Source of the DNA: Patescibacteria group bacterium
GTDB taxonomy: Bacteria; Patescibacteriota; Patescibacteriia; UBA1558; S5-K13
Direction of reading: 5' to 3'
DNA: 35,541 nt
NCBI GenBank assembly: GCA_028703545.1
Contig: JAQVMR010000001.1
Location: forward strand, 1-35,541
The notes beneath the pieces were generated by a model. It was not told the DNA's origin. It searched no databases and saw only the letters and a program-made list of their open reading frames with translations. Each line of letters starts with the position of its first letter. Position 1 is the first letter of the stretch. Positions 3,086-23,129 of this stretch are shown here, piece after piece. A program made the translations under genes and the position numbers.

Positions 3086-3919
3086 ATGAATTTATTAGAG
3101 CAAACAAAATTTATTTTAAAAAACTATAGTTTGTCTATAAATAAATTACGCGGACAGAATTTTTTAATTTCAGATAAAATTTTAAAAGATATAATAGACA
3201 TTTCTGATTTAAAAAAAACTGATAATGTTTTAGAAGTTGGACCAGGGTTGGGAACACTTACAAATGCAATTTTAGAAAAAAATGTAAATTTAATTTCAGT
3301 TGAGCTTGATGAAAATTTTATTCCAATTTTAGAAAAAATAAAATCAGTTTCAGAAAATTTTAATTTTATTAAATTTGATATACTAAAATTAAATTTGAAA
3401 AAAGAATTAAATTTAGATTTTTTAAAAAAATACAAGATTATTTCAAATATTCCCTATAATATTACATCTAGATTTCTTAGAATTTTTTTGGAATCAGATT
3501 TTGCACCACAGAAGATGATTTTAATGATTCAAAAAGAAGTAGCACAAAGAATTGTAAATTATGATAAAAAATGGTCTAAACTTTCTGTCATGTGTAATTT
3601 TTATAGCGAACCAAAAATAGAATTTTATGTTTCAAGAAATGATTTTTATCCTAGTCCGGAAGTTGACTCAGCGATAATAAGTTTTTCAAATATTTCTAAA
3701 GACAGATATGGGGTGGATAGAAAAAAGTTTTTTCAGATTGTAAATATAGGATTTTCTTCAAAAAGAAGAACGTTATTGAATAATTTAAAATCAGGATTAA
3801 ATTTGGATAAAAAGAACATTGAAAGCGCTATTTTAAATTGCGAGCTAGATTTAAATATAAGAGCAGAAAAATTAAATTTGGATAATTGGATTAAATTATG
3901 TTCAATTTTGATAAAATAA
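3086..3919 (+). CDS. rsmA: 16S rRNA (adenine1518/1519-N6)-dimethyltransferase
   Basis: KsgA/RsmA N-terminal signature GQNFLISDKIL, then the SAM-binding motif VLEVGPGLGTLT, then the NIPYNITS motif. Length of 277 aa is typical. Confidence 0.9.
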   Translation: MNLLEQTKFILKNYSLSINKLRGQNFLISDKILKDIIDISDLKKTDNVLEVGPGLGTLTNAILEKNVNLISVELDENFIPILEKIKSVSENFNFIKFDILKLNLKKELNLDFLKKYKIISNIPYNITSRFLRIFLESDFAPQKMILMIQKEVAQRIVNYDKKWSKLSVMCNFYSEPKIEFYVSRNDFYPSPEVDSAIISFSNISKDRYGVDRKKFFQIVNIGFSSKRRTLLNNLKSGLNLDKKNIESAILNCELDLNIRAEKLNLDNWIKLCSILIK

Positions 3920-5505
3920 AAAAAATTTTTACTTTTAGAAATATACTTCTTGTAAGTTTTTATGTTTTTATTTTTTTTATTTTTTTATACAACTCTTATT
4001 CTTATCTTGATCCAGATTTTGGCTGGCATTTAAAATTTGGACAAGAAACTTTACTTACAAAACAAGTTCCTCACATAGAGCATTATAATTTTACACTTTT
4101 TGGCAAATCATGGGTTGATCACGAATGGTTATTAAATGTAATTGTTTATGTTATTTATTCCAAAATGGGTTATTTATATGTCAATCTGTTTTTTGCATTT
4201 ATGGCCGTTTTAACATTTATAATAATAAATATTTTGTTATTAAAAAAATATAAAACAAAAATATTTGATCTGATAATTTTATTGCTATTAGAGCTATTAG
4301 CTGTTTTTGGAATTTTACCTCATTTTGGTGTAAGAGTTCAGGAAATTAATTTTTTATTTTTGGCTATACTTATTTTAATTATTTTTCATTTTGAAAAAAA
4401 TAAAAATTATAAAATTCTTTTATTTATAGCACCCTTATTATTTTTTTGGTCATTTCTACACGGAGGATTTCTTATAGGATTTGCTTTGCTTTTTATTTTT
4501 TTCTCTGTAAAAATTTTAGAATTGATTTTTCAAAAATTTAAAAAAATTAACTTTATTGAATACAATATTTTAAGTATAAAAGATTTAATAATTTTTACCT
4601 GCGTGTCTTTATTTAGCTTTTTTCTTACATTTTTGGGTCCATATAAATTCGAGCTTTATAGTTTTTTATATCAATACAAAGACACTTTTTACTTAACTCA
4701 TATCGCAGAATGGGTTCCAGTATTTTATATACCGATAAGTATTTCTAAATTTTTTTATTTAGTTATTTTAGTATCAATTATTTTGTTAGCTTTTTTTTAT
4801 ATAAAATTTAAAAAAATAAAACTTTTTGAATTTTTTATTACTATTTTTTTTGTTATTTTATCTATAAAGTCAAAAAGACACTTCCCTTTATTATTTATTA
4901 GTTCTATTTTTTTCGCATTTGATTACTTAATATTTCTTTTTTATGATTTTTCTAATTTTTTAAATAAAATTTATCGCGAAATTTATTTTATATATAAAAT
5001 ATTTATAATAGTTTTTTTACTAAGTATTTCCCTATTTTTATTTTTAAACATAGGATTTATAGAAGATCCCTTTTTAAATTTTAAAAATGAGTATCCAGTT
5101 GACTTGTTGGATTGTATAAAAAATCAAAAACAAAATCATCAAAGAGTCTTTATGGAGTATGGTTGGGGTGGCTATACTATTTGGACGGCACCAGAGATTA
5201 AAACATTTCTTGATGGAAGATTGCCACAATATCCATTTAAAAATAACAAATCAATACTTCAAGAATATAATCATTTTTTTGATGATAAAGAATCAGAAAG
5301 ATTGTTGGATGAATATAATATAAAAATGCTTGTTTTAAAAAAAGAAAACGAGAAAAATAAATTAAATTGGCTTGAAAGATTTTTCGGTTTCAACGAAAAG
5401 ACATATAAACCATCAAAGAATGCATTAAAAGAATATTTAAATTCCTCAAATAAGTGGATGATTCTATGTAAAGAAAAAATAGGAATAGTGTTTATTAGAA
5501 AATGA
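3898..5505 (+). CDS. Polytopic membrane protein, possibly a GT-C-fold glycosyltransferase
   Basis: 535 aa with more than 10 hydrophobic spans, followed by a ~130-aa soluble C-terminal domain. There is an acidic motif in the first extracytoplasmic loop (YLDPDFGWHLKFG...VDHEWL), as seen in GT-C enzymes. It overlaps the rsmA 3' end by 22 nt. The family call is from memory only. Confidence 0.4.
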   Translation: MFNFDKIKKIFTFRNILLVSFYVFIFFIFLYNSYSYLDPDFGWHLKFGQETLLTKQVPHIEHYNFTLFGKSWVDHEWLLNVIVYVIYSKMGYLYVNLFFAFMAVLTFIIINILLLKKYKTKIFDLIILLLLELLAVFGILPHFGVRVQEINFLFLAILILIIFHFEKNKNYKILLFIAPLLFFWSFLHGGFLIGFALLFIFFSVKILELIFQKFKKINFIEYNILSIKDLIIFTCVSLFSFFLTFLGPYKFELYSFLYQYKDTFYLTHIAEWVPVFYIPISISKFFYLVILVSIILLAFFYIKFKKIKLFEFFITIFFVILSIKSKRHFPLLFISSIFFAFDYLIFLFYDFSNFLNKIYREIYFIYKIFIIVFLLSISLFLFLNIGFIEDPFLNFKNEYPVDLLDCIKNQKQNHQRVFMEYGWGGYTIWTAPEIKTFLDGRLPQYPFKNNKSILQEYNHFFDDKESERLLDEYNIKMLVLKKENEKNKLNWLERFFGFNEKTYKPSKNALKEYLNSSNKWMILCKEKIGIVFIRK

Positions 5506-5644: not shown

Positions 5645-6433
5645 ATGACTTCAAATAATGAAAAAGATTTTTCTTTGGGAAATTCTATTAATAAAAATAA
5701 ATTTTTTAATAGAGTTTTTAATTATTTTTCAAGAGAAGATGTTATAGTAAAATCCATATTTATAGTTGGGATTTTTTCTATTTTTTTTGGAATACTGGGA
5801 ATGTATATAAACATTAAAAATTCTTTGATAACACCTGAAGTTGCTATAGAAAACACAGCGGTTATAGTAGAAGGTTTAAATAGAATAAAAGATACTGATT
5901 TGGATGGATTACCAGACTATGAAGAATTAAATACATATAACACTAGTCCATATTTAGAAGACACAGATTTAGATGGAGTGTCTGACTATGATGAGATGAT
6001 TTTGGGAAGAGACGGAGAATGCAGTGGGGATAATTGTAAAATAATTACAGCACCGGAAGAAGAATTAGACGTCATGAGTTTATTAGGTGGATTAGATTTT
6101 CAGGATGTGGATTTTCAAACATTTAAGCAAACATTAATTGAATCAGGCTATGATGAAGCAACTTTTGATTCTCTAACAGAAGAAGATTTTAATCAAATGA
6201 AACAAATGCTTCCCTCGGAAGAATCAGGCGATGTAAATTTTTCAAATCAAACAGAATTAACAAAAGAGGAGCTTCAACAAATTGAACAAATGAGAAATAT
6301 ATCAATCCAGGATATTAAGAGTCTAATGATACAAGGCGGGGCAACAGAAGAAAAATTATCAGAATTTTCAGACGATGATTTAAAACAAATATATTTACAA
6401 ACACTTGATGAATTATCAAGTTCACAATATTAA
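5645..6433 (+). CDS. Single-pass membrane protein with two TSP3-type Ca-binding repeats and an acidic C-terminal region
   Basis: One N-terminal TM helix (SIFIVGIFSIFFGILGMYINI). Two D-x-D-x-D-G-x-x-D-x-x-E units (DTDLDGLPDYEE, DTDLDGVSDYDE). The remainder is rich in D/E/Q. Its TAA stop lies 4 nt before the giant gene's ATG. Confidence 0.7.
   Translation: MTSNNEKDFSLGNSINKNKFFNRVFNYFSREDVIVKSIFIVGIFSIFFGILGMYINIKNSLITPEVAIENTAVIVEGLNRIKDTDLDGLPDYEELNTYNTSPYLEDTDLDGVSDYDEMILGRDGECSGDNCKIITAPEEELDVMSLLGGLDFQDVDFQTFKQTLIESGYDEATFDSLTEEDFNQMKQMLPSEESGDVNFSNQTELTKEELQQIEQMRNISIQDIKSLMIQGGATEEKLSEFSDDDLKQIYLQTLDELSSSQY
5891..5995 (+). repeat. Two TSP3-type calcium-binding repeats (protein level)
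   Basis: DTDLDGLPDYEE and DTDLDGVSDYDE lie 23 residues apart. Both fit D-x-D-x-D-G-x-x-D-x-x-E. Confidence 0.75.
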
Positions 6434-6437
6434 AAAA

Positions 6438-9400
6438 ATGATAAATAAGAAATCAAAATTTATTTTAATTATTGTAACAACAATATTTGTTTTTAATACT
6501 ATCCTTGTTGTTCCAAGGAAAGTAGAAGCTCAAACCACAGACTACGCCCATATAGCAGTTACGCTTGGTAAGTGGGCATGGGAAAAGGTGGAGCGTGTGG
6601 CGACAAAGTTTTATGATTCATTGGTGACAGTAACATTTAAAAGGGTTATAGGGAATTTTTTAAATAATTTAGCATATGAGGCGGCCACCAGTTTAGCTTA
6701 TGGTGCCCCAGGAGAAAAAAAGAAGTTTTTTACAAAGGGTTTTGATGAATTTCTTGAAAATGAAGCTGATGCAGCCGTGGGAGAAGTTTTAATAGCATTC
6801 GGTGAAAGTTTGGAAATAAAGGGTTTTGATATTTGTAATCCAACGGATCCAAATTTTGCGATTGATTTAGTAACAGATCAGTTTAAAATTAGATCAGGCC
6901 AAAAAATTCAAGCAAGATGTAAATTAAGTGAAATGTCAAAGAAATGGGGAGAAATAGCGCAGAAATATATCGATAATCCTTTAGCATTATTTTCTTTAAA
7001 CGGGCAATCTCTTGCCGAATTGGGTTTTACAGAGGGTGGTAATAAAAACGAACAAATGGCAAAAGTTTTAGAAAATCTTTTAGATCCAAAACAGTCAGAT
7101 GCTGCCGTTGAAATATCGATCCGTGATCAAATACAACAAACAGAAAAAGCCTCTAATGAAAAATCAAAAGATACTATAGCGACCGCGAGAGAAACTGGGG
7201 GAGTATTGCCCAGTACAGACGCACCAACTGAAAGAAAACTCGAACCATCAAAGCAGGCAGAAGAAGACCTGAAAACAAATATCGGCGCTGATAAAAAACA
7301 AAGTCCATTACTAACCTATACAGGAAATCTAGTGGCTGATACAGCAGGAGTATTTATGGATACATATATGGCCGCCTCACTTAAGAATTTAATAATGGAG
7401 TTGTATAGAAAAGCACTAAATGAAAACGAGAGTTATAGCCCGGAACTTAATCAACTTATTGCTAAAAAACCATTTTCTTTCAAGGATTACATAGATCAAG
7501 TTTATTCTTCTGTAAAAAAAATATCTTTTAATATGAACGCAACAGATATTGAGTTAATAAGTGAAATGCAAATGACAATGAGAGATCCTAATTTAGGAAT
7601 TCCGGGTAATCTAAATGATTCTGTTATTGATTCTGATTTTGCAGAAGTTTTAAGAAGGGCTCAACTTCAAGATCCTATGACACTGAGGCAAGCCATAGAA
7701 GAGAATTTAATAAATGGAAATAAAATATTTGGATTTAAAGATTTAAATAATACTCAAATTCTTCAACAGCCAGATTTAAGTGAGGGAATTTCATATGATA
7801 ATATGAAAAAATTGAGAAAAAATAGAGTAATCCCAGTTGGTTGGGAATTGGCGGCTCTTAAGATAGCTCAATTAGCAAAAAATGGAACACTAATATGTCA
7901 ACCCGGTGGATGCACATTAAATGATGTAATGAGTCAGTATAATCAATATGGTAATTATAAATACGGAGAAGTGGTTAATGATGAAGTGCAGTGGAAAACA
8001 GCCCCGGATAACTTATGTGGTTGGAGATCTTATCCTCAACTTAATCTTACACAGGCACAATGCAACAAAGATTATTTAAGAGGAGCCCCACATTATTTAG
8101 ATGATATAGAAGTAAAATGGGTTGGAGATAGTGTTAGTAATGAAAGAACGGGTATCTGTTATAAGTATAGTTTTGATAACAACGGATTTCTATCTGAAAT
8201 AACAGAGGAATCTTCAATAGTAAGTGAAGATGATTGTGATATAGTAAATTCTAACTGGTATTATGAATGGATGGATGGTGGATGTCTTATAATAGAAAGT
8301 GGAGAAGCTCCACTTTGTGGACTTATTAATCCAGACTGGGTATTAAAAGCACCAGTACAAAAATGTTTTGCAAAAGGATATTACAGCGCACTTGAAATGA
8401 ATGAAAGTTCAAATAGGTATCAGGATTGTGCTGACACAAGACAGTGTCTTAAGGAAGATGATGGTGGAAGATGTATAGGGGGATATGGATATTGCTTGAA
8501 GGAGAAGAATATTTGGAAATTTAAAGGAGATGTGTGTGACAAAAACTATAATGGATGTGTAAGCATAACCGATGATGAAAATAAACAGCAAGCATATTTA
8601 ATTAATACATTAAGAGATTGTCCCCAAGAACAATCTGGATGTAGAAAATATTTATCTACAAAGATAAAATCAGACACTTCTTATGTTTGGGATTTAAATA
8701 TAGAAAATTTTTTCTTTAATAGAAATATTACATCTTGTAATAAGTTAAAAGAAGGTTGTAATAATTTTATTAATATAGAAAGGGGGGTTAATTTAATTCC
8801 AAATTCTAGTTTTGAAATAGACGAAGGTAGGGAAGATTTAATTCCAGATGGATGGAGTGTTACTGGTTTTAAATTATCTTCGGCTTCAGCTCTTTTAGGA
8901 AGGTATTCTCTAACTCTAGATAATGGATTGTCAGATAATACAAATATAACCGATTCATTAACAGAAGATTTAGGAGACGATAGTGGGATATCTAATGCAG
9001 ATACTGGCAAAATAAGTGGAAATGAAAGAGATGGTCGTGGAATAAATACAGGAAAAGAAGATCTAAGAAGTAATGGTGAAACATCTAATTCAGATAATGG
9101 CACAGTAAATGGAAATGAAATAGGTGGTGGTGGAATAAATACAGGTGATTTGTCTATGAATATTAAAATACCAGGAATGGGTAATTATGTTTTAAGTTAT
9201 CATGTAAAAAATATTAGCGGAAATAGTGTTGTAGTTCCTTATATAAATGATATGTCACTTGATGATGCAAAATTTGAAGAATCTGAAGCTACGGATTGGA
9301 TTAGAAAATACGCTACATATACAGTATTAGATAATTCTACCGAGGAGCTTTCATTATCAATTAACGGAAGAGGAAGTTTTTATTTAGACGATATTCAATT

Positions 9401-12400
9401 TGAATTTATAGATCAATCGATTTCTGAACCCATTGATTCATTGGGTCGAACATCTTCCAGTAGATCAAATTTAATTCCAAGTCCATACAATGAATACGGT
9501 AATACATCAAATGTTTTCTTTAAAAAAGCACCCGATTATTATAATTGTAAGAGCCTTAATCCAGCTCCTGAATGTGATAATTATTCTAAGTATTGTTCAA
9601 AAGAAGATAATGGTTGTGAACTATATAGACCCGTAAATGGGGATGCTTCGGTAAGTGCTATAGTTACGCAAAATGATGTTTGTCCATCTGAGTGTAATAA
9701 ATTTCAATCATATTCACAGCTACCAAATTATTTTGATAAGTTAGAGGCCCAAGATGCTAATGAAAATATTCCAGATCCTATTACAAGAAATTTTATAGCA
9801 GATACAGCACAAAATTGTCTTGAACCATCTTGTGAGGAGTTTACAAATATAGATAGCACTAGTCAGGGCGGAGAAGGAAGAGAATATTATAATTTTTTAA
9901 GGCAGTGCGTAACGCCCAATGATGTTAATAATGAAATAAGTATATATTATACATGGGAGGGATCTGATACAGCTGGATTTCAATTAAAAACATGGAAATT
10001 ATTAGAGAGCAACTTATCAGACGGTAATATAGCAGGAAGAAATGCTCCATGTACTAATATTGCAATAGGTGGTTTTGAGTGTTCTGATTTGTCGAGTGGG
10101 AGATCCTGTGATCCAGAAAATGATTTAGATTGTAGAAGTTTCTATGATATGAATTCAATATCATATAATAGAAAATTATCAAAAACAATTCCAATTACAG
10201 ATGAATGTATAAGATTAAGAAGAACATTAAGTAATGTCGTTTACAAGGTGGTTCCATCTATGAGTCAAAGGTGTTCAGAGTCAAATGTTGGATGTATTGA
10301 ATATAAAGGAAATAATGGAAATAATATAAGAAATGTTTTGATAGAAAATTTTGAATACGGCACATCAAACCCCTGGAATTTTTCTAATGGATTAAGCTTT
10401 CACCCATCTTCAGAATCATTACAGTATGGAGGTTCCTCATTGGCTGTTTATACGTTTGGGGGGGCGACACAATTTACACTATCATATAATTTAACAGAAA
10501 ATGGATTCAATATTATTCCAGGAAGAGAATATACTCTAAGTTTTTGGGTAAAGAAATTTAGTGACAATGATACATACGGAGAAGATAGTGATTTAATAGA
10601 AGATTCCGAACAACAGGCAATAAATTTTGAAAATTTAATTTTTAATAAAGCAAGGGCACAGGAAAATTCAAATTTGACATTTACGTCTTCTGTCGTTGAA
10701 AATCCAGAATGGGAACTCAGGCAATTAAATATTATTGTAGCACCAACTACTATAACAGAAGAAGATGAAGTTTTATTGATTATAAATATCCCAATAGTAA
10801 ATTCATCTGACTTGAGAGATGGAATATTTATAGACAATATAACACTGAAAGAATTTCAAAATAATTTTTATAAAATAAGAGATTCATGGAATACTCCACG
10901 TGTTTGCGTTGATAATGATAATAATGGAATTATTGATAATAAATATTTAGGTTGTCAGGAATATAAGGACAGGAAAAAATCATCAAATTATTTATATCAG
11001 TTTAGTAATATTTGTAATCCAGAAAATGTAGGATGTCGTGCTGTTATTGACACAAAGAATTCCAAGATGCCATTCAAACAAGTTTTTAATGCTTATTGTA
11101 ATAATACAGGAAGTGCAAGTAATCCAGAATGCACAAAGAATAAATATTATTATTTAAATAATAGAGAAGAGCCAATTTCAGGAAATGATTCAGATAGCAT
11201 GATAAAGGTTCCTGAAGATACAATAGAATATATTGTAGAGGACAATAAATTTCAATGTACTAATTCTGAAAAAGGATGTCAGAATTTAGCTATATTAGAC
11301 AATAGCGGAAATCCAAGCGATGTGTTTATGGTAAATAATCCAGATGATTATATATCAGATGACTATTTTGGTGCTCAAAACCAGACTCTATGTTTATCCA
11401 AGTATAATAATTGTGTGTCTATGGAAAAGTTGGATGGTAGTTATTTATTTAAAATTCATCCAAGGGAGAACTTGTGTGAATATAGAAAAGCAGAAATTGG
11501 TTTGGGATTACCAGCTGGTTTTTATAAGAAAGGAACGAATGAAGCATGTGATGGCCTATTATATAACAAGGGTTATGATGAATCTATGAATAATATAGAA
11601 AATACATTGAATGATCATTCTATATTCCCAGAGTTTACTAATTCTTACGCAGCAGTGTGTCCTCAGGCACAGGATTCTTGTACCGCATTTATAGACCCAC
11701 AGGATAATTTAAATCAGATACCACAAACTTTAAATTTTTATAACACAGAAAATAATAATACCCCCAATTGGAAATTATTTGATTTAAACATAAACGGAAC
11801 AATCGCACCTGTGCAAGGTAATGTTTCTGCCACATCTTCAGGAATTGAGTTTGCTGCCAATTCAGGAGAATTAGCAAGGAATAGTTACAATTTTTCTGTA
11901 GAACAAAAACAAATTTATAAATTAGCTGGATTTGTTAAATTTGATGCATCTTCAGAAAATAAAAATAGATTTATTTCAACACATTTAATTTGTAAAAAGA
12001 ATAAAAACTCAGATGAATATTATTACTCTGTTGCTGAAAATAAATTACCATACGCATTTCCAGATTTAAATTCAAATTATTTTGTAAAGGAAAACGCTGG
12101 TAATGTCGATAAATGGATTTATATATATGGACTCTATACAATAGAGCCAGGTGCAAATTTTTGTAATGTTGCATTCTATTACGGCGGAAATGATGGAAAT
12201 ATATCAATTATAAATATGTCATTTGAAAAATTACAAGGATATTATACATATATTGATAATCAAAATATTGATAGAACAACTTGTATAGAACCAAGCAAAG
12301 AAAAGGGGTGTGTTTTATTTCATCAAGTTACAGATCCAACCCTAAGATGGAGTTCAGATATAAGTTATGATAATTCTAGTTTAGTAATGGGAAATTTGTA

Positions 12401-15400
12401 TTCTGTTGCAGACTCTAATGTGCTCTTGAAGGTTACAAAAGATAGAACTTGTGGAGAATGGGCGACTTGTGGTTCATCTATTAAAACAGTTGATGAAAAA
12501 ACAGGACAAGAAAAAAATTCTTGTATATCTCTTATTGGATGCGACTCCCTCTCTGCAGACAATTCTCAGTGTGATAATTTTATTTTAAGAGATGACAGCG
12601 TAAAACCACTTACATTTGATGATTATCAGAGACAAATGGGTATTGATTTATCATGGTCAGAAATGGATTATAGTGGATATTCTGTGCCAGGACTTTATCC
12701 TCTTGATAGTTTGTCGATATTTCCGACCAACACAACAACAAAGGAATATGAATTGGGGAGATCCGTAATTAAGAGAAATGTATCTGGACAAAATTTAGTT
12801 TATAAGTTTGGCTTGGGAGTTGATCCAGTTGAATCTTATTATAATGCATATAAATACCTAGATAGTCAATATAAAACATGTAGATTGTATCCAGAAAAAG
12901 ATTCACCATTTGTATGGACTCCTAGCATAGTTTTGGAATCTACTGCAACGACAGTTGGTGGAGTTTCTTATTCAATTCCTACATCCTTGAATCAAAGATT
13001 TCAAAATGCGAATATATGTCAACCAAAGTTTAACACTGAGGATCCGCCTTTGATAGATTGGTCACTGGGATTAAATAATGATTGTGATTGTAATTATACA
13101 AAAGTTACATACGGTTCTTCAAAAAATCTATATTTTCCTTATGGATATAGTAATATACCAGCAAATATTACAGAAGAATACTCTGCAACAACCATATCAA
13201 ATAAGAAATCACAAACAAATTTTATAGGATGGCGAGGATTCTGCTTAGAAAGAGATGATTCATTTTTGGCAACACCTCCTAACACAATCAGTGGAAATGG
13301 TGATAGATATAAAACAAGATGTTTATCTTGGTATCCTGTTGATTCTATAAGTGGTGAGATTGATTTATATTCTGTAGCACCAGAATCTAAAATATCTATG
13401 CCATCTGACTCTAAAGTGTGTTTAGTTGCAGATGATTATGTAACGGAAGAAGATAGAGTATACTGTGCCTTTTGGAGTTCAAATGAGAGCGAATCTAAAG
13501 CTGGTTTGTATGGCACTCAAGGGTCAGGTCATGGTTATAATGCTTTTGACCCTCAATTGTCAAGATGCAATGTATTGGCCTATGTGCCAGCAGGGACAAA
13601 ATTGTCACAAAATTCAGAAGAAGATTTTTATAACTACTTTACAAATCCAGATAATTATTGGACTCAGGATGAATTTAATGATAAATTTGTAACACAAACA
13701 CTAACAAATAACCAAGATAAAAGTTATGATATTATATATGGGGTTAATTGGCCAAGCTGGTATGAAAACAATGTTTATTATGCTGGTTTTCACTGTAATC
13801 TTTATTCAGAAGGGGGGCACTATTGGAGAGAGAAGGAGCTAAAATTTAATCCTATAGAATTTATGGAAGTTGAAAATCCTGAGGGCGACCTCACATTGGC
13901 ATTGGAGAGAGATTTCATGGAAGATTTTAAAAATAAATTATTGCCCAAGTTTCCAATTAATCAGCCTATTGATTTTTATTACTATGATGAGGGCGTGAAA
14001 CCTTCTGGTGAAAGCTATGTAGGAACTGACGGTCATGGTGTTTATGAATGGGATGACCTTAATTCCGGTTATAGGGCTAATCTATTCAGTACAGATGATA
14101 AACGAAATGTATTTATTCCACTCAGTAAGAAAGGTTATGGCTTCGACGATGACAATACTCAAGCATGTAGTAGTGCCCAAACTGTTGGAGATGCTTATAG
14201 AGAAGCCTGTGATGCAGCTAATACTCATTTTGGTGATGAATTTAACCCTTCTTTACCATATCCAAAAGGACATGAGGTTTATACAGATTGTGTCAGTGGT
14301 GGAGATTCTGAATCAATGTGGAATCCACTTAGACACAATTATTATGTTCATTATGACGGAACTAATAAGCATACCTACAGTCAAGGATGGCCTATTGGGC
14401 CTCAAAGCGTAGATGATTATGCAGGAAATATGTCATCTTGTCCTTCTGGTGATTGTGCGTCCAGCTATGATGATTTTCAAAGTATTAAAGCTTGTAGGGC
14501 TACTGGACTTATCAGTGATTCAAGTGATTCTGGATTTGATAATGTTATATTTCATTCGGATAATTATTATATAAATTATATACTGAAGTTTGGTGATGTT
14601 GGCACAACAACAGATTCAATATGTACAATACAAAATAATAATATTTGTTCTTCTATAGAAGTTGGGAAATCGAATTTATTCTCATATGATACTCTTATTT
14701 TAAGAGTTAAAGACGTAGCACAAGAAAATACTAATTTTAATGTCAATAATCATATAGGCACAGAGTTTGGTTTGTCGTCTGGTGTGAGTAGTTTAAGAGA
14801 TCCTATACATTCTAATTCTGATAATTTTAAGAATTATTATTATACATACTCTACTGATATTAAAAATTCACTAACAGGAGCTAGGAATAATTTAAGTAAT
14901 TCAATAGTAAAAATTGCAAATATAGAGCATTATCAATATGCAGTCAATGCGTGGGAGGAGGGTAATTGGGTCACATCTTCATATATTTGGGATTTAAGAG
15001 AAAATTCAGAAAACAATGCTCCAATTATCAAGCAAGTAAATAAAGATGGAGAGGGAGCCAGGGGAATAACAGTTAATAACAGTAATTCTGCGGATATATA
15101 TGCCGTGAAAAGTCTAAAAGTTAATTTGAGTTTTTACGCTTACGCTCGGTGGGGCAGATCTCCAATAAAAGAAATAAAATTGGATTGGTATGGCGACGAC
15201 TCCGATACATTAACACTTCCAGGACCATTTAAAAATAAAAGAGCAGAATGTATAAGAAAGTGTGCGGATAAATATAGTTCAATTTCAATACAAGATTGGA
15301 ACAATGGTGATTATTGTAATTCTGATTCTGATTGTACAGGCGGGCAAAAATGTTTTTCCTATGGTTGGGGTAATGATCAAAATTCTTGTGTTGAAGACGA

Positions 15401-15665
15401 ATTTAATTATTCATTTGTATATGTTTGCACCCCAGATAGCGACTATTGGATTGATAGTTGTGAAATAGCGGGTGATGAACCATGTTGTATATTTAATCCA
15501 GCAGTTATAATTACTGACTCTTGGGGAAATTCCTCTGAATCGGGAATGTCTGATGAAAAATCAATTATAATAACAACAAATCAAGGAATTTTGAATATTA
15601 GAAATCGACAACAAAACATAGAAGAAGACGAAGAAGACGAAGAAGACGATGTAACATTTAGATGA
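6438..15665 (+). CDS. Giant secreted Cys-rich multidomain protein (3,075 aa from the preferred start), function unknown
   Basis: Longest ORF in the window (track: 6405..15665). I prefer the ATG at 6438, 4 nt after the upstream TAA, because it gives a classical signal peptide MINKKSKFILIIVTTIFVFNTILVVPRKVEA/QTT. The first ~450 mature residues are Cys-poor. About 88 Cys (hand count) then lie mainly in spacers between three Cys-poor CBM4_9-like beta-sandwich modules. The tail is acidic (EEDEEDEEDD). There is no TM anchor or LPXTG motif. Confidence 0.85.
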   Translation: MINKKSKFILIIVTTIFVFNTILVVPRKVEAQTTDYAHIAVTLGKWAWEKVERVATKFYDSLVTVTFKRVIGNFLNNLAYEAATSLAYGAPGEKKKFFTKGFDEFLENEADAAVGEVLIAFGESLEIKGFDICNPTDPNFAIDLVTDQFKIRSGQKIQARCKLSEMSKKWGEIAQKYIDNPLALFSLNGQSLAELGFTEGGNKNEQMAKVLENLLDPKQSDAAVEISIRDQIQQTEKASNEKSKDTIATARETGGVLPSTDAPTERKLEPSKQAEEDLKTNIGADKKQSPLLTYTGNLVADTAGVFMDTYMAASLKNLIMELYRKALNENESYSPELNQLIAKKPFSFKDYIDQVYSSVKKISFNMNATDIELISEMQMTMRDPNLGIPGNLNDSVIDSDFAEVLRRAQLQDPMTLRQAIEENLINGNKIFGFKDLNNTQILQQPDLSEGISYDNMKKLRKNRVIPVGWELAALKIAQLAKNGTLICQPGGCTLNDVMSQYNQYGNYKYGEVVNDEVQWKTAPDNLCGWRSYPQLNLTQAQCNKDYLRGAPHYLDDIEVKWVGDSVSNERTGICYKYSFDNNGFLSEITEESSIVSEDDCDIVNSNWYYEWMDGGCLIIESGEAPLCGLINPDWVLKAPVQKCFAKGYYSALEMNESSNRYQDCADTRQCLKEDDGGRCIGGYGYCLKEKNIWKFKGDVCDKNYNGCVSITDDENKQQAYLINTLRDCPQEQSGCRKYLSTKIKSDTSYVWDLNIENFFFNRNITSCNKLKEGCNNFINIERGVNLIPNSSFEIDEGREDLIPDGWSVTGFKLSSASALLGRYSLTLDNGLSDNTNITDSLTEDLGDDSGISNADTGKISGNERDGRGINTGKEDLRSNGETSNSDNGTVNGNEIGGGGINTGDLSMNIKIPGMGNYVLSYHVKNISGNSVVVPYINDMSLDDAKFEESEATDWIRKYATYTVLDNSTEELSLSINGRGSFYLDDIQFEFIDQSISEPIDSLGRTSSSRSNLIPSPYNEYGNTSNVFFKKAPDYYNCKSLNPAPECDNYSKYCSKEDNGCELYRPVNGDASVSAIVTQNDVCPSECNKFQSYSQLPNYFDKLEAQDANENIPDPITRNFIADTAQNCLEPSCEEFTNIDSTSQGGEGREYYNFLRQCVTPNDVNNEISIYYTWEGSDTAGFQLKTWKLLESNLSDGNIAGRNAPCTNIAIGGFECSDLSSGRSCDPENDLDCRSFYDMNSISYNRKLSKTIPITDECIRLRRTLSNVVYKVVPSMSQRCSESNVGCIEYKGNNGNNIRNVLIENFEYGTSNPWNFSNGLSFHPSSESLQYGGSSLAVYTFGGATQFTLSYNLTENGFNIIPGREYTLSFWVKKFSDNDTYGEDSDLIEDSEQQAINFENLIFNKARAQENSNLTFTSSVVENPEWELRQLNIIVAPTTITEEDEVLLIINIPIVNSSDLRDGIFIDNITLKEFQNNFYKIRDSWNTPRVCVDNDNNGIIDNKYLGCQEYKDRKKSSNYLYQFSNICNPENVGCRAVIDTKNSKMPFKQVFNAYCNNTGSASNPECTKNKYYYLNNREEPISGNDSDSMIKVPEDTIEYIVEDNKFQCTNSEKGCQNLAILDNSGNPSDVFMVNNPDDYISDDYFGAQNQTLCLSKYNNCVSMEKLDGSYLFKIHPRENLCEYRKAEIGLGLPAGFYKKGTNEACDGLLYNKGYDESMNNIENTLNDHSIFPEFTNSYAAVCPQAQDSCTAFIDPQDNLNQIPQTLNFYNTENNNTPNWKLFDLNINGTIAPVQGNVSATSSGIEFAANSGELARNSYNFSVEQKQIYKLAGFVKFDASSENKNRFISTHLICKKNKNSDEYYYSVAENKLPYAFPDLNSNYFVKENAGNVDKWIYIYGLYTIEPGANFCNVAFYYGGNDGNISIINMSFEKLQGYYTYIDNQNIDRTTCIEPSKEKGCVLFHQVTDPTLRWSSDISYDNSSLVMGNLYSVADSNVLLKVTKDRTCGEWATCGSSIKTVDEKTGQEKNSCISLIGCDSLSADNSQCDNFILRDDSVKPLTFDDYQRQMGIDLSWSEMDYSGYSVPGLYPLDSLSIFPTNTTTKEYELGRSVIKRNVSGQNLVYKFGLGVDPVESYYNAYKYLDSQYKTCRLYPEKDSPFVWTPSIVLESTATTVGGVSYSIPTSLNQRFQNANICQPKFNTEDPPLIDWSLGLNNDCDCNYTKVTYGSSKNLYFPYGYSNIPANITEEYSATTISNKKSQTNFIGWRGFCLERDDSFLATPPNTISGNGDRYKTRCLSWYPVDSISGEIDLYSVAPESKISMPSDSKVCLVADDYVTEEDRVYCAFWSSNESESKAGLYGTQGSGHGYNAFDPQLSRCNVLAYVPAGTKLSQNSEEDFYNYFTNPDNYWTQDEFNDKFVTQTLTNNQDKSYDIIYGVNWPSWYENNVYYAGFHCNLYSEGGHYWREKELKFNPIEFMEVENPEGDLTLALERDFMEDFKNKLLPKFPINQPIDFYYYDEGVKPSGESYVGTDGHGVYEWDDLNSGYRANLFSTDDKRNVFIPLSKKGYGFDDDNTQACSSAQTVGDAYREACDAANTHFGDEFNPSLPYPKGHEVYTDCVSGGDSESMWNPLRHNYYVHYDGTNKHTYSQGWPIGPQSVDDYAGNMSSCPSGDCASSYDDFQSIKACRATGLISDSSDSGFDNVIFHSDNYYINYILKFGDVGTTTDSICTIQNNNICSSIEVGKSNLFSYDTLILRVKDVAQENTNFNVNNHIGTEFGLSSGVSSLRDPIHSNSDNFKNYYYTYSTDIKNSLTGARNNLSNSIVKIANIEHYQYAVNAWEEGNWVTSSYIWDLRENSENNAPIIKQVNKDGEGARGITVNNSNSADIYAVKSLKVNLSFYAYARWGRSPIKEIKLDWYGDDSDTLTLPGPFKNKRAECIRKCADKYSSISIQDWNNGDYCNSDSDCTGGQKCFSYGWGNDQNSCVEDEFNYSFVYVCTPDSDYWIDSCEIAGDEPCCIFNPAVIITDSWGNSSESGMSDEKSIIITTNQGILNIRNRQQNIEEDEEDEEDDVTFR
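9006..9146 (+). repeat. 93-nt-period direct repeat inside a G/N/D/S-rich insert of the giant gene
   Basis: ggaaatgaaagagatggtcgtggaataaatacagga (9018-9053) and ggaaatgaaataggtggtggtggaataaatacaggt (9111-9146) are offset by 93 nt. They encode GNERDGRGINTG and GNEIGGGGINTG. Confidence 0.8.
15621..15647 (+). repeat. Perfect (GAAGAAGAC)x3 microsatellite encoding EEDEEDEED, ending six codons before the giant gene's stop
   Basis: Read directly: gaagaagac gaagaagac gaagaagac, followed by gat gta aca ttt aga tga. Confidence 0.95.
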
Positions 15666-15702: not shown

Positions 15703-18700
15703 ATGATAAATAGAGATAATAAAATATATAAAACATTGAGAAGTATAATACAAAAATTTAAAAATTTTGAAAATTCTTTAACAAGAAAAAGAAAAATTTT
15801 TTACGCTATTTCTTTATTTTTTATTTGTATATTTTTTTGTTTCCCGGGGGCAACAGCGAGGGCGACATTAATGGATGCAATTCTTAATCTACTTACAAAT
15901 TTATTTTTGACTATACTTAGTTTTTTGGGTTGGATTGCTACTAAACTTATGATAGCTTTAGTTTTTTTTGCAACATGGGGTAAATACACAACAGGCATAC
16001 ATGCAGTTGTTGAAGGATGGAAAATTGCAAGAGATATATGTAATATGTTTTTTATATTTATACTTCTTATAATCTCATTTGCTACTATAATAGGCATAGA
16101 ATCATATTCATATAAAAAATGGCTAGGGAAGGTTGTAATATTTTCAATTCTAATAAATTTTTCTAAAATGATCACAGGTCTTTTAATAGATGTTTCTCAG
16201 ATAGTGATGTTAACATTTGTGAGTGGATTTAAAGATGCAACTGTGGGTAATTTTGCAAAGGGCCTTCATTTAGACCAGTTGATGAAAAAGGAAGCAGGCA
16301 CAAGTTCAGAAGAAAAGAATAGCAGCACAAGTGTTTTTGTAACAGTGGTGTTAGCTTGTATAATGTTGGTAGTTTTAAATGTCATATTGGTTATTATGAT
16401 AGTTATGCTTGTGGGAAGAATTTTGAGTTTTTGGATTTTGGCAATTTTATCTCCTTTTGCATTTTTACTTCAAGCATCTCCTGCGGGGGGTAAATATGCA
16501 AATGAGTGGTGGCAGTCTCTTTCAAAAAATCTTATTAGTGGTCCAATACTTGCAATGTTTATTTATTTGACAATGGCAACAATTCAAAATTCTGTTGATG
16601 CAGACCATAATAAAGTTGAGAATTTATCTGAAATTGGTGGAGTTTTAGACAAAGATGAAGAAAATATGGGTACTAGTGGGGCAACAGTTGGGCAGTATTC
16701 TTTAGAGAAGACCAGTATGATTTTAGATTTTATTATTGTTATTGCTATGATGATTGCAGCCATAAGGATAGCGGGATCGCTTGGAGTAATGGGTTCAAGT
16801 TTTGCTGGTAATATGTCAAATAAATTACAGAAAGCTGGTTCTTCAGCCCTTAAACTTGGTATGGCGGGGGTCGGTGCTGCTACAGGAGCAAATTATTTAG
16901 CGAAAAGATATAGGGCATATAAAGAAATTAGAAAAGATAGAAAAGATCAAAAAGCATATCAAGATGCACAGAAATTTATGGATAGAACTGGAAAAATGAA
17001 GCAGGGCGTTGGTAAATTTATGCAAAATCCACTAAAATCTTTGTCCAGTGACAGAAATAAAGTAGGAAGATTTTTTAAAGGAGCTGAACAAAAAAGACAG
17101 AATGTTGCAAAATGGGCTAGTGGTACTTGGGCTGGAAGACGTGCTCATGATTTAAATTTTGCCCAAAAGGCTAGAGAAAGAGCAGAAAAATCAGCAAATG
17201 CGGCTTCTCATCTTTCTTATGCTAGGAGCATGGGAGTTCGCAATACCCAAGATATAGATAATTTGGAAAATGGTTTAGATACTCGAAGAACCAACATAGA
17301 TAGAGATGAAGCACATTTTATAGAAGAATATAGAAATAGTCATCCAGGGGCCAATATAACAGATATAGATCAGATAGATAAGGGTACATTAAATGAGGAT
17401 CAAAGAGTGCAGCTTGATAATTTGAATAATAATAGAAAAAAAATAGAAACAGAACAGGGACACATAGATGGACTTAGAGATTTGGTTGGAGGTTTAGATG
17501 TGCAAGAGGCGGAATTTATAAATAATTATCGAAATAATAATCCTACTTCTACTGCAACAGATTTAAGTGAAATAGATAGAAGAACCCTGACTGATCAAGA
17601 AAGAAATAAACTTTATAGTTTAATGAATCAAAGAACAAGATATGATCAATCAGGAGAGAATAAAAATTTAGAAACTTTAGATGATTTATATAAAAGACAT
17701 AATATAAAGAATGAACAGAAGAATAGTTTAGATAGGCAAGAGGCGGAATTTATAAATAATTATAGAAATAATAATCCGGGCGTTAGAATAACATCTTTGG
17801 GTGACATAGATAGAACTACTTTGAATGATCAACAGAGAACTGAACTTGCTAAATTGGAAAAACAAAGAAATAAGTTGGGAGAAGTTGGACCGGCTATAAA
17901 TAATTATGAAGATGTTTTAGCAAATACAAGAATTTTAGATGAAACTATAAATCATTTTCAGGAAAAATCAGAGAAATCATCAAGAGCTGCTCAGGGTTGG
18001 ACAGAATTTGGAACTGGTGCCGCAGCTGTATTTAGAAGATCCCTTTTGGCAACATCATTTTTAGCTCCATTTGCTTCTGCTCTTGGGGGGTCATTTTTTG
18101 CTCCACTAGCTAATTTATATGGAATTCATACAGCAACAGGCGGTGTATATGGTGCATTGGCATCTTCTGGTGCAAGCTGGTCAATGGCTGCTGCAGCTGC
18201 ACCTGGCTTAACGAGTGATGCAGGTAAGGCACTTGAGCGAAGTGGTCAGGCAGATGTAAGGGATGCTGCAAATTATTTAAGTAATAAAGTTATGGATGCT
18301 GCAAAAAAATTTGAGGATATGGATACAGGAATGGTAGAACGCATGAGAGATGATATAAAAACTTCTAATGTGGATTATATGGCAGCTCAATTCCAATTAT
18401 TAAAAAGAGGTCTTGTGGGTGTAGATCAAATACCACAGCTTTTATCTGATTTACAAAATCGTGGTGCTGATAGAAATACACTGAGATCATTTGAAGGAGA
18501 AATAAGAAAACAATTCCCAACGGAAGGTAGATGGTTAGATGCACAAGGAAGGCCATTATTAGACGGAGACAGAGGAAGTAGACAGGCAGAACAGATGAGA
18601 CTCAATGGAGTGGGAAGAGTATTAGAGGGTATAAATGCAACGGGATATACACAAGAAATAATAAGAAATGCCATTAGAGAATCAAGAACGCCCGCTGAAC

Positions 18701-19224
18701 TTAGAGCGGATGCAAATCGTTTGTCAATAGAGCAACAAAGGGGTGTTGCTCAAGTTTCTCATAGAATTTTAATAGAGGATAGTGCTGGTATGAATACAGA
18801 GGATTTGAATAAACTAGCTCAATTTTTATCTACATCCCTGAGCTCTAATGTAAATAGAGAAGAGAGACAAACAATGTCTCGTGAGGCCTATAATGAATTA
18901 ATAGGAAGAGATGATATAGCACAGATAAATACAGCAGATTTATTGGTAAATATGGATTTAAATGATGCGGGGTTAGATCAGAGACAGCTTTTGGCAAATA
19001 TTAATCCAGTAGAAATTGGAAATATGGTTAGAACAGCAAATGATTTAGGTGGAGATAGAAAAACCATGGTTAATGATTGGTTGGGACAAATTAGGCCATT
19101 ATTAGATCAAATGCTTACCGGTAATCAACTAGAACAACAGAATGCTCAACGTATCATAGCAAGATTAGGCCAAATGCAGGGAGCGGCCGCTTTAAATACC
19201 ATGAATAATCTTGATTTATATTAG
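15703..19224 (+). CDS. Large polytopic membrane protein (1,173 aa), with a core possibly related to TrbL/VirB6-type channel proteins
   Basis: N-terminal signal/anchor, then at least 7 hydrophobic spans within residues ~30-365. A basic, coiled-coil-like region follows and contains three tandem repeats. A second Gly/Ala-rich hydrophobic patch is present (GAAAVFRRSLLATSFLAPFASALGGSFFAPLANLYG...AAAAAPGL). The ~340-aa tail is rich in Arg, Ala and Gln. The TrbL/VirB6 resemblance of the segment WKIARDICNMFFIFILLIISFATII...ILINFS is from memory and unverified. Confidence 0.75.
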   Translation: MINRDNKIYKTLRSIIQKFKNFENSLTRKRKIFYAISLFFICIFFCFPGATARATLMDAILNLLTNLFLTILSFLGWIATKLMIALVFFATWGKYTTGIHAVVEGWKIARDICNMFFIFILLIISFATIIGIESYSYKKWLGKVVIFSILINFSKMITGLLIDVSQIVMLTFVSGFKDATVGNFAKGLHLDQLMKKEAGTSSEEKNSSTSVFVTVVLACIMLVVLNVILVIMIVMLVGRILSFWILAILSPFAFLLQASPAGGKYANEWWQSLSKNLISGPILAMFIYLTMATIQNSVDADHNKVENLSEIGGVLDKDEENMGTSGATVGQYSLEKTSMILDFIIVIAMMIAAIRIAGSLGVMGSSFAGNMSNKLQKAGSSALKLGMAGVGAATGANYLAKRYRAYKEIRKDRKDQKAYQDAQKFMDRTGKMKQGVGKFMQNPLKSLSSDRNKVGRFFKGAEQKRQNVAKWASGTWAGRRAHDLNFAQKARERAEKSANAASHLSYARSMGVRNTQDIDNLENGLDTRRTNIDRDEAHFIEEYRNSHPGANITDIDQIDKGTLNEDQRVQLDNLNNNRKKIETEQGHIDGLRDLVGGLDVQEAEFINNYRNNNPTSTATDLSEIDRRTLTDQERNKLYSLMNQRTRYDQSGENKNLETLDDLYKRHNIKNEQKNSLDRQEAEFINNYRNNNPGVRITSLGDIDRTTLNDQQRTELAKLEKQRNKLGEVGPAINNYEDVLANTRILDETINHFQEKSEKSSRAAQGWTEFGTGAAAVFRRSLLATSFLAPFASALGGSFFAPLANLYGIHTATGGVYGALASSGASWSMAAAAAPGLTSDAGKALERSGQADVRDAANYLSNKVMDAAKKFEDMDTGMVERMRDDIKTSNVDYMAAQFQLLKRGLVGVDQIPQLLSDLQNRGADRNTLRSFEGEIRKQFPTEGRWLDAQGRPLLDGDRGSRQAEQMRLNGVGRVLEGINATGYTQEIIRNAIRESRTPAELRADANRLSIEQQRGVAQVSHRILIEDSAGMNTEDLNKLAQFLSTSLSSNVNREERQTMSREAYNELIGRDDIAQINTADLLVNMDLNDAGLDQRQLLANINPVEIGNMVRTANDLGGDRKTMVNDWLGQIRPLLDQMLTGNQLEQQNAQRIIARLGQMQGAAALNTMNNLDLY
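17302..17880 (+). repeat. Three tandem protein repeats (periods of 66 and 78 codons) in the 1,173-aa membrane protein
   Basis: The three units are RDEAHFIEEYRNSHPGANITDIDQIDKGTLNEDQRVQLDNL, VQEAEFINNYRNNNPTSTATDLSEIDRRTLTDQERNKLYSL and RQEAEFINNYRNNNPGVRITSLGDIDRTTLNDQQRTELAKL. Units 2 and 3 share a near-identical DNA block, caagaggcggaatttataaataattat, at 17503 and 17737 (234 nt apart). Confidence 0.9.
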
Positions 19225-21282: not shown

Positions 21283-21804
21283 ATGTTAAAAATTAGTAGA
21301 AACTTTTATCCAGAAGTATTTTATCATATTTATAATAGAGGTGTTGATAAGAGAAAGATATTTTATTGTAGAAGGGATTATTTATTTTTTATAAATAGAA
21401 TTAATTTTTATAGGCGAGTAACAGGGGTTATTATTGTAAGTTATTGTTTGTTACCAAATCATTATCATTTTATTTTGCGTGAACCACCCCACCCAATGGG
21501 TGGTCTTCCACCCATTGGGTGGGGATATAAAACAAATGTAAATCCATTTTCAAATTTTAAAATTCCTAAATTTATGGGTCTTCTAGCCAATTCATATACA
21601 AAATATTTTAATAATAAAAAAGGACGATCTGGAAGATTATTTGAATTTGTTTTTAAGTCTAGAGAAATTAATAAAGAAAATCAATTAAGCAATGTTGTTA
21701 ATTATATTATTTTCAATCCGCTAAAGCATGGATTGGTAAATAATCAGAAAGATTGGAAATATACATTTGTTGATGATAAAAAAATAACCAATGTTTTGCA
21801 TTAG
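21283..21804 (+). CDS. IS200/IS605-type Y1 HUH transposase-like protein (REP-associated tyrosine transposase, RAYT-like)
   Basis: HUH motif in LLPNHYHFIL. The C-terminal catalytic-Tyr helix NYIIFNPLKHGLV matches the Y-I-x-x-N-P-x-x-x-G-L-V pattern of RAYT-like proteins. RSGRLFEFVFKS matches the conserved G-x-L-[FW]-Q-x-R-[FY] strand. The ORF is intact despite an in-frame palindromic insert at 21487-21524. Confidence 0.7.
   Translation: MLKISRNFYPEVFYHIYNRGVDKRKIFYCRRDYLFFINRINFYRRVTGVIIVSYCLLPNHYHFILREPPHPMGGLPPIGWGYKTNVNPFSNFKIPKFMGLLANSYTKYFNNKKGRSGRLFEFVFKSREINKENQLSNVVNYIIFNPLKHGLVNNQKDWKYTFVDDKKITNVLH
21487..21524. repeat. Perfect 17-bp G+C-rich inverted repeat with a 4-nt loop, in frame inside the RAYT-like gene
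   Basis: CCCCACCCAATGGGTGG tctt CCACCCATTGGGTGGGG. The right arm is the exact reverse complement of the left. 12 of 17 arm positions are G/C, in otherwise A+T-rich DNA. It encodes PHPMGGLPPIGWG. Confidence 0.95.
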
Positions 21805-22387: not shown

Positions 22388-22412
22388 ATTTTTGTCTTTT
22401 AATAAATTCAAT

Positions 22413-22426
22413 CCCGCTTAAGCGGG
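22413..22426 (-). other. G+C-rich palindrome/hairpin between rpsR and efp
   Basis: CCCGCTTAAGCGGG is a perfect palindrome (5-bp GC stem, 4-nt loop). It sits 23 nt after the rpsR stop and 26 nt before the preferred efp ATG. No clean U-run follows on the minus strand. It could be an attenuator, a processing site or a weak terminator. Confidence 0.3.
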
Positions 22427-22449
22427 GTTGAAGTATAAAATAATTTAAA

Positions 22450-22674: not shown

Positions 22675-22678
22675 AGTT

Positions 22679-23101: not shown

Positions 23102-23129
23102 ATAATTTTATTTTAAATATTAAAACAAT

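Follow-up and report, generated by a model that had tools for sequence, protein, structure and literature searches.

What does a member of the Patescibacteria do with a secreted protein of about 3,000 residues that carries 88 cysteines and is encoded beside a gene for a VirB6-like protein? The question arises from a 35,541-nucleotide stretch of Patescibacteria DNA (contig JAQVMR010000001.1, assembly GCA_028703545.1; hereafter, the window), in which one gene at 6438-15665 encodes such a protein, which we call the giant. Patescibacteria make up a large share of bacterial diversity, and those that have been cultivated live attached to other cells. To our knowledge, nobody knows what these bacteria's type IV secretion system (T4SS) does. 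A T4SS has been reported in most classes of Patescibacteria (PMC12102498), and Southlakia, the one species tested, requires its T4SS genes to grow as an epibiont (PMC10633639; PMC12857230). From sequence, predicted structure and gene order, we propose that the giant is a Sec-exported, disulfide-stapled, lectin-bearing surface component that is coupled to the Patescibacteria T4SS and binds host glycans, a composite reading that we hold slightly likelier to be right than wrong.

An intact reading frame with many full-length relatives

The open reading frame (ORF) runs intact on the + strand from an ATG at 6438 to a stop codon at 15663-15665 and specifies 3,075 amino acids (aa), beginning with a signal peptide, in agreement with a preliminary description of this region as encoding a giant secreted protein. 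The N-termini of homologues place the start at this ATG (MINKKSKF...), 11 codons inside a mechanically assigned TTG start at 6405. The preliminary description counted from the TTG, and its residue numbers are 11 too high; its positions match once the offset is applied. The window is AT-rich (G+C about 21-39% in 1-kb blocks), and the exact sequence of the giant is present in an NCBI Patescibacteria metagenome-assembled genome (MAG) as hypothetical protein PHH83_00030.

As the source is a MAG and the ORF is unusually long, assembly or annotation could have created the gene artificially, for example through gene fusion or a frameshift. Independent assemblies contain co-linear homologues of 3,062-3,126 aa that cover 99-100% of the query, and hundreds of independent assemblies, including a complete genome, contain co-linear full-length homologues of 2,400-3,500 aa. 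Thus, chimerism or a frameshift, which the preliminary description had named as dangers to its reading, is very unlikely on these sequence comparisons, the ORF appears to be a real gene, and we give an artefact practically no weight.

A further 34 matching proteins of 1,711-3,299 aa (two of them partial) came from independent assemblies and were 24-62% identical to the giant in the best local alignment. When residues 620-1800 were searched exhaustively, 1,265 representative clusters (50% identity) passed E ≤ 1e-3, and 1,033 also passed E ≤ 1e-30; among the 150 matches listed, family members were mostly 2,400-3,500 aa long. The peptide [IV][IVL]PVGWExAA alone identified relatives in 364 GTDB species genomes. 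A second search for homologues with the full-length family alignment, with a word prefilter in effect, yielded no new members. Carriers with informative titles were Komeili-, Falkow-, Buchanan-, Uhr- or Kuenenbacteria or "Parcubacteria group"; we take the five named lineages to belong to GTDB class ABY1. No homologues were detected outside Parcubacteria-type lineages in the signature-peptide search of GTDB species genomes. Many GTDB records with the giant locus (our loci L005, L007, L009, L010, L013-L015 and others) are titled "uncultured Gammaproteobacteria" (third-party binned); these look mislabelled.

The giant is very likely secreted and disulfide-bonded

Residues 1-31 (6438-6530) form a signal peptide, MINKKSKFILIIVTTIFVFNTILVVPRKVEA, followed by Q. 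Called from sequence features only, it has a basic n-region, a hydrophobic core and a cleavage site after VEA. The Ala of the A-x-A site is invariant across the family alignment, and outside the signal peptide the protein contains no strongly hydrophobic 19-mer; among 156 relatives, only 4 have a hydrophobic 19-mer beyond residue 60. We found neither an LPXTG-type motif nor a C-terminal hydrophobic segment in the giant, the C-terminus of which is acidic. Both the classical signal peptide and the lack of a transmembrane (TM) anchor in the preliminary description are therefore borne out. The acidic tail that it also remarked on is real, but is peculiar to the window protein and not conserved in relatives. 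As the giant has no anchor, its retention on the cell would depend on another protein.

The giant contains exactly 88 Cys, the approximate number first reported, with none in the signal peptide. Cys make up 2.86% of the giant, compared to 0.70% of the 17 other ORFs of the window (binomial p = 2e-27). They are unevenly distributed. Cys133 (in FDICNP) and Cys161 (in ARCKL) are the sole Cys before residue 487, so the roughly 450 residues after the signal peptide indeed hold two Cys, as had been noted. Cys are absent from residues 162-486, 775-1036, 1287-1489 and 2738-2937, and as many as four Cys-free gaps of at least 200 residues never arose in 20,000 random placements. Locally, the giant contains 11 C-x6-C pairs (permutation mean 2.1) with the consensus C-x5-G-C-x-E-[FY], which suggests that these pairs are stapled hairpins.

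Comparison with homologues supports extensive disulfide bonding, as the preliminary description had supposed. Of the 88 Cys, around 50 occur in 33 or more of the 35 aligned sequences, so the Cys positions are conserved, contrary to the outcome that the preliminary description had said would count against it. Approximately 44 Cys columns are near-invariant among homologues that are only 25-30% identical, and in a 33-sequence alignment Cys account for roughly half of the 74 invariant columns. With the signal peptide removed, the number of Cys is even in 74 of 81 full-length relatives (p = 3e-15), in which it ranges from 75 to 168 (median 110). In one of the Cys-rich segments described below (S2), lineage-specific loops bring in Cys two at a time. 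Among variable Cys columns, 113 of 258 have an identically distributed nearby partner, compared to a mean of 1.6 after column shuffling, a control that ignores phylogeny and so overstates the excess. The conservation, the even parity and the extracytoplasmic location of the Cys support about 44 structural disulfides, and the fold of the giant probably depends on these mostly local bonds.

Metalloproteins, too, can be rich in Cys that are strictly conserved, raising the possibility that the Cys are instead metal ligands (Zn or Fe-S) or redox-active sites. We found no CxxC motif in the giant and only two C-x3-C, which argues against metal or redox sites; the extracytoplasmic location of the protein, the even parity in 74 of 81 relatives and the paired gain and loss of Cys argue in the same direction. 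We consider metal or redox Cys scarcely credible. In contrast, we regard it as very likely that the giant is secreted and disulfide-bonded.

Whatever its function, a bacterial protein with 75-168 conserved, paired Cys is unusual. The design, in which small modules with local intradomain disulfides are arranged in a long extracellular chain, is shared with eukaryotic proteins of the EGF/LDL-receptor type and with thrombospondin type 1 repeat proteins. However, the window giant matches no such family, and the likeness is architectural only. In a distant family member (P0033), we observed Pfam matches to thrombospondin type 1 repeats (TSP_1; PF00090 and PF19028) and to PA14. To judge from its sequence, eukaryote-like adhesion modules can be grafted onto the giant scaffold.

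Cys-rich segments are the conserved core, and two Cys-free modules resemble carbohydrate-binding modules

We segmented the protein along the family alignment and determined the identity of each segment to distant members. AlphaFold2 (AF2) models cover residues 32-790 and 1025-1760, the latter made with 31 homologues and having a mean predicted local distance difference test score (pLDDT) of 73.7; residues 1760-3075 (about 40% of the protein) lie outside the models. From residue 620, Cys-rich segments (S1 to S3) alternate with Cys-poor modules (M1 to M3). S1 (residues ~620-780; 8295-8774) contains 12 Cys, of which 11 are near-invariant, and the first C-x6-C hairpins, and is 33.5% identical to distant members. 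S2 (~1025-1295; 9510-10319), with 16 Cys, is the most conserved segment (38.4%), and S3 (~1488-1760; 10899-11714), with 14 Cys of which 12 are near-invariant, is 32.4% identical. The Cys-free modules M1 (~780-1025; 8775-9509) and M2 (~1295-1488; 10320-10898) are 22.8% and 26.3% identical to distant members.

The preliminary description had treated the Cys-dense stretches as spacers between modules. The picture is inverted: the Cys-rich segments, which are the best conserved (32-38% versus 23-26% identity), are the core, and the Cys-free modules, which resemble carbohydrate-binding modules (CBMs), are the more variable parts. S2, at pLDDT 80-92, is predicted to be an all-beta, hairpin-rich domain built of short strands, and 12 of its Cys are invariant among 46 sequences. 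S3 was partly modelled (pLDDT 40-90). A search of PDB sequences with S2 gave zero matches at E ≤ 10, and S2 shares no Pfam family. By profile comparison (hhalign), the S segments are related to each other at 71-87% (86.6% for S1 and S3, 71% for S1 and S2) and M1 to M2 at 95%. These links appear only through profile comparison, as BLASTP comparison of the giant with itself revealed no internal repeats.

Of the three Cys-poor blocks in the preliminary description, the first two are Cys-free and family-wide. The third (~1749-1948) contains Cys 1852 and 1909 and is specific to the subclade of the window. This nearly Cys-free module, M3 (~1760-1947; 11715-12275), is an insertion covered by only 14 of 33 family members, and each of its two Cys is found in 7 of 35 homologues, the same 7 in both cases. 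We looked for signs that M3 is a third CBM and found none: 5 orthologues gave no significant Pfam match, and hhalign gave no match to M1 or M2.

M1 and M2 are, from sequence and, for M2, also from its model, jelly rolls of the CBM_4_9/CBM22 type. M2, the one module compared structurally, superposed in Foldseek on solved structures of CBM22 (4xup), CBM4 (3k4z) and CBM16 (2zew), all of the PF02018 clan, and also on 4xuo (probability 1.0), with E values from 1.9e-5 (4xup) to 3.7e-3 (2zew) and a target TM-score of about 0.6 for single-module matches. Among 50 orthologues of each module, 43 of M2 (best E 1.4e-9) and 22 of M1 (best E 1.1e-7) match Pfam CBM_4_9 (PF02018). The window copies fall below the Pfam cut-off of 25.9 bits: the score of M2 is 19.5 bits (E 0.0013) when the module is searched by itself and 11.1 bits within the full-length giant, and M1 gives no CBM_4_9 match. 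In contrast to the usual setting of CBM_4_9 modules, those of the giant reside in a protein in which no catalytic domain is detectable. Distant relatives lack a loop of some 70 low-complexity residues, with much G, N, D, S and T, that is present in the window M1 (…GISNADTGKISGNERDGRGINTGKEDLRSNGETSNSDNGTVNGNEIGGGGINTGD…; residues ~835-905, 8940-9150).

Between the signal peptide and S1 lie two further regions. In the N-terminal region (residues 32-365; 6531-7532), which contains the conserved Cys133 and Cys161 and the motif LAYDxAxxxASGxxGQKPLF, long helices are predicted by AF2 at low confidence (pLDDT 30-50). A 46-sequence profile of this region gave no PDB sequence match. The idea that it might resemble VirB5/TrbJ or a pilin found no support in Pfam, the PDB profile search or Foldseek, and comparison with the T4SS pilin, PrgI and TraC-like families encoded at these loci gave hhalign probabilities below 1%. 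A compact alpha/beta domain follows (~366-619; 7533-8294) and runs into S1. It bears the family signature RIIPVGWELAA, in which or near which R460, G468, W469 and E470 are invariant, and AF2 predicts an alpha/beta-plus-beta fold for residues ~370-650 at pLDDT 85-96. The model of residues 32-790 had no significant Foldseek match (best E 0.39 in PDB and 0.31 in BFVD).

Since CBM_4_9 modules usually accompany glycoside hydrolases, the giant could be a secreted polysaccharide-processing enzyme or a cellulosome-like scaffold with a catalytic domain hidden, for example, at residues 366-650. The invariant R460, W469 and E470 could be catalytic, and some relatives contain matches to Dockerin_1 (dockerin-like repeats). 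However, neither Pfam/NCBIfam searches of the window protein nor the precomputed Pfam annotation of 35 homologues contained a catalytic family, Foldseek found no enzyme fold for residues 32-790, and the operon context is one of secretion rather than sugar use. We regard an enzyme or scaffold as a remote prospect.

The Cys-rich C-terminal half (residues 1947-2759; 12276-14714) begins with mostly invariant Cys (1949-2453) and continues into a variable region (~2460-2760) present in only 10 of 33 relatives. A query with the C-terminal third matched ORFs in only 16 of 85 sequences searched. The last ~300 residues form a domain (14715-15665, to the stop codon) that is conserved in the family alignment (DWGDG...DNWG), with a Cys-rich insert at residues 2938-3017 and the non-conserved acidic tail. 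Its resemblance to the WDFGDG motif had suggested a PKD domain, and this was rejected, as six C-terminal segments gave no PKD match at E ≤ 1. Searches of Pfam and NCBIfam with the giant also yielded no match to a named T4SS subunit (VirB2 pilin, VirB5, PrgA/B/C, VirB1 or VirB8). The Cys-rich domains and the domain at residues 366-650, which have no detectable relatives in known families, are targets for structure determination.

Conserved gene order suggests a link between the giant and a VirB6-like protein

We examined the gene context of the giant at 84 loci plus the window by ORF calling and phmmer/jackhmmer searches; downstream frequencies refer to the 49 loci with at least 5.5 kb beyond the giant. 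The gene order is fixed: KsgA, a small Ca-repeat membrane protein, the giant, a VirB6-like protein and a protein of the p419/p444 family. The VirB6-like gene is downstream of the giant in 44 of the 49 loci, in a few at a distance of 6-8 kb. Upstream, a homologue of the small protein immediately precedes the giant in 73 of 74 loci, and KsgA is upstream of the small gene in 67 of 75.

In the window, the VirB6/TrbL-like gene (15703-19224, + strand) encodes a polytopic protein of 1,173 aa with about seven hydrophobic segments within residues 32-357, followed by a hydrophilic extension of about 800 aa. The protein is 33% identical to its counterpart at locus L001. Pfam TrbL matches five of 12 relatives (E 6.7e-6 at best), and PF04610 is among the precomputed annotations of one relative. 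The N-terminal domain gave no meaningful match to PDB sequences. In combining a TrbL/VirB6-like domain with a long hydrophilic extension, this neighbour (rather than the giant itself) resembles the extended VirB6 proteins of Rickettsiales (a type described in PMC12857230), although its assignment is remote and the window copy is below threshold. The extension contains three protein-level repeats, EAxFIxxYRNxxP (at residues 536, 602 and 680; ~17308-17950), in a region where Tandem Repeats Finder reports no DNA repeat.

The small upstream protein (262 aa; 5645-6433, + strand) contains one N-terminal TM segment (residues 33-51), Ca-binding Asp repeats resembling TSP3 and one Cys pair. It matches Pfam TSP3_bac weakly and is 32% identical to its L001 counterpart. 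The same TSP3-type Ca-binding repeat is present in a YkuD L,D-transpeptidase encoded elsewhere in the window (30485-31765, - strand), which gives a hint that these bacteria use the repeat as a module for association with the wall or envelope. At most other loci KsgA is only 0.7-1 kb from the giant gene; in the window, a 535-aa polytopic protein with no family match is encoded between KsgA and the small TSP3 gene (3898-5505).

The fifth gene of the window cluster encodes p606 (606 aa; 19390-21210, + strand), a p419/p444-family protein with no Pfam match above threshold. The p419 model, which also matches p606, detects a protein downstream of the giant in 37 of 49 loci, and the p444 and p419 groups are one family (hhalign probability 100%). 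Relatives of the locus carry one or two copies between the VirB6-like gene and PrgI (for example, at 22211-23482 and 25065-26432 of L003). We rejected a resemblance of p606, p419 and p444 to TrsD or to the N-terminal part of VirB4 (hhalign probability 0.07%). The p606 family is probably an unrecognised T4SS-associated protein.

Further downstream, PrgI is encoded in 15 of 49 loci, usually with a TraC-like protein and VirB4. At L032, which is part of a complete genome (CP129476.1), a single strand encodes, in order, KsgA, the small protein, the giant, the VirB6-like protein, p444, PrgI, a TraC-like protein, VirB4 and a ComF-like protein. The assignments are supported by Pfam matches to PrgI/VirB3 (3e-9) and, for VirB4, to P-loop_TraG (7e-28), AAA_10 and DUF87. 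Five other loci (L034, L052, L074, L076 and L081) contain the same run through VirB4. At L062 and L049 the run reaches PrgI and the TraC-like protein, with VirB4 not detected before the sequence end, and at L003 a similar run contains extra inserted genes.

Could the giant be an autonomous host-attachment fibre or adhesin that binds host glycans by itself, with the proximity to T4SS genes reflecting nothing but a conserved chromosomal neighbourhood? Giant surface proteins with a presumed role in attachment are common in candidate phyla radiation (CPR) bacteria (PMC8080830, PMC13059738), the presence of CBM modules is in favour of binding to glycans, in the window and its closest relatives the giant is retained with no PrgI or VirB4 nearby, and five loci (L004, L020, L027, L038 and L077) have no VirB6-like gene within reach. 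However, the VirB6-like gene follows the giant in 44 of 49 loci across lineages in which the giants are only 25-30% identical, even where the ATPase genes have moved away, and such adjacency is hard to explain without functional coupling. In addition, the giant has no anchor of its own and needs a partner to remain on the cell. We therefore consider a functional link between the giant and the VirB6-like protein likely and an autonomous adhesin unlikely.

A model for the giant in host contact

The model that we favor is one in which the giant is made together with its two constant neighbours, the small Ca-repeat membrane protein and the VirB6-like protein. It would reach the outside of the cell through Sec as a chain of about 3,000 residues with no anchor, acquire its disulfides beyond the membrane, presumably with the help of a DsbA-type enzyme, and be retained at the surface by one or both of these neighbours. 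From N- to C-terminus, it would consist of a helical region, a compact domain, a chain of Cys-rich beta domains bearing two CBM_4_9 jelly rolls and a lineage-specific third module, a variable region and a conserved C-terminal domain. The rigid, disulfide-stapled chain would project from the cell, and the lectin modules and variable C-terminal region would bind glycans of the host cell. In this way, the giant would position the T4SS as its extracellular, glycan-binding contact component, much as do the adhesins whose genes precede the channel genes of Gram-positive conjugation operons, to which it is unrelated.

Besides the overstated covariation of Cys pairs, several observations weigh against this model. 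Many Patescibacteria are anaerobes without an electron-transport chain, and the source of oxidising power is thus unexplained. Enzymes and wall-binding proteins can likewise contain CBM folds, so that the cell's own wall could be the ligand. The window VirB6-like protein scores 17.7 bits (E 0.0032) against Pfam TrbL (PF04610), which has a cut-off of 25.9 bits, making the assignment remote. The adjacency of the genes could reflect a shared placement near KsgA rather than a shared function. Finally, neither PrgI nor VirB4 is encoded in the window, where the cluster stops after p606, an end point shared with the closest relatives (L008-L014), and this leaves the link to the ATPase core dependent solely on homology of context.

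In another explanation, the CBMs would bind polymers of the cell's own wall rather than those of the host, and the giant would be a rigid, disulfide-stapled structural stalk or conduit of the apparatus or envelope that spans both wall and S-layer over the VirB6 channel. In complete loci the giant heads the operon, its extremely conserved core with invariant Cys fits a machine part better than it fits a fast-evolving adhesin, and monoderm T4SSs have no known extracellular channel. The Ca-binding TSP3 repeats shared by the small partner and the nearby L,D-transpeptidase also hint at wall association. Yet no oligomerisation or channel-like feature was seen in the models, which are elongated multi-domain chains, and the variable C-terminal third is as expected of a ligand-facing end. 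Moreover, giant homologues were detected only in Parcubacteria-type lineages, while the T4SS is reported in most Patescibacteria classes (PMC12102498). We judge a stalk or conduit to be decidedly improbable.

A bolder version of the model that we favor is that the giant is the previously unseen extracellular apparatus of a repurposed T4SS. As a single disulfide-stapled polypeptide docked on the VirB6-like protein, it would reach and grip the host envelope through its lectins and might form or guide the route taken by material passing between the epibiont and the host, using at least two domain types without a detectable known family (residues 366-650 and the S domains). If true, T4SS surface structures would gain a new kind that has no relation to pili, VirB5 or the adhesins of Gram-positive bacteria. 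We consider it doubtful.

One of the closest known parallels is the PrgB/PrgA/PrgC set of the Enterococcus plasmid pCF10 (MPF-FATA), in which the genes for large Sec-exported surface proteins likewise lie upstream of the channel genes and share their strand. The pCF10 surface proteins make cell-to-cell contact on behalf of the secretion machine, and the channel genes follow in the order VirB6 (PrgH), VirB3 (PrgI) and VirB4 (PrgJ), the same order as in complete relatives of the giant locus. Unlike proteins of the PrgB type, the giant is Cys-rich and two to three times larger, and has no sequence or fold similarity to them, no LPXTG anchor and no polymer-adhesin or Ig-like domains. Giants of Vampirococcus lugosii and the Absconditicoccaceae are also very large, contain a signal peptide or membrane segment and interaction domains, and have been proposed to function in host attachment (PMC8080830, PMC13059738). 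These proteins, which we set apart by their description, contain WD40, TPR, PKD and saposin domains, with no Cys-rich architecture or T4SS linkage reported (PMC8080830, PMC13059738).

In agreement with the gene order seen here, a survey of Patescibacteria T4SSs described KsgA near virB4 and comF in loci of class ABY1 (PMC12102498). That survey detected no PrgB-like adhesin or other component for host contact and does not mention the giant protein, and its supplementary tables do not mention CBM_4_9 or TSP3 near virB4 (PMC12102498). Giant surface proteins in CPR bacteria and T4SS-linked adhesins in Firmicutes are already known themes. In the literature searched, which lay largely outside subscription journals, we found no description of the family, its Cys-stapled domains, the compact domain or the VirB6-adjacent position, and these may be new.

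As it is large, strictly conserved, encoded beside a VirB6-like gene and, in complete relatives, at the head of the operon, the giant family is a concrete candidate for the host-contact part of the T4SS. It also raises the question of how oxidative folding occurs in organisms that are often anaerobic and lack an electron-transport chain.

Other features of the locus

A DsbA-family gene is located near the giant in 12 of 57 loci, and such an enzyme is a plausible oxidase for the disulfides of the giant. At 10-12 of the 57 loci, a pair of T4SS_pilin (PF18895) genes is accompanied by a DsbA-family thioredoxin gene, all divergently oriented upstream of the KsgA-giant cluster (for example, L003 1261-7225 and L062 1300-3875, with about 10 further loci).

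Beyond p606, the window contains an ORF with a weak IS200-type match, followed by the genes for EF-P and ribosomal protein S6 on the other strand. The first of these (173 aa; 21283-21804) resembles an IS200-like Y1 transposase (E 0.005) and is located at the point where synteny with the PrgI/TraC-like/VirB4 run ends. It may mark a rearrangement that split the operon in the lineage of the window. Farther along, two ORFs of about 400 aa each (27616-28845 and 29109-30308) have no Pfam match; the second contains 8 Cys (2.0%, compared to a background of 0.7%).

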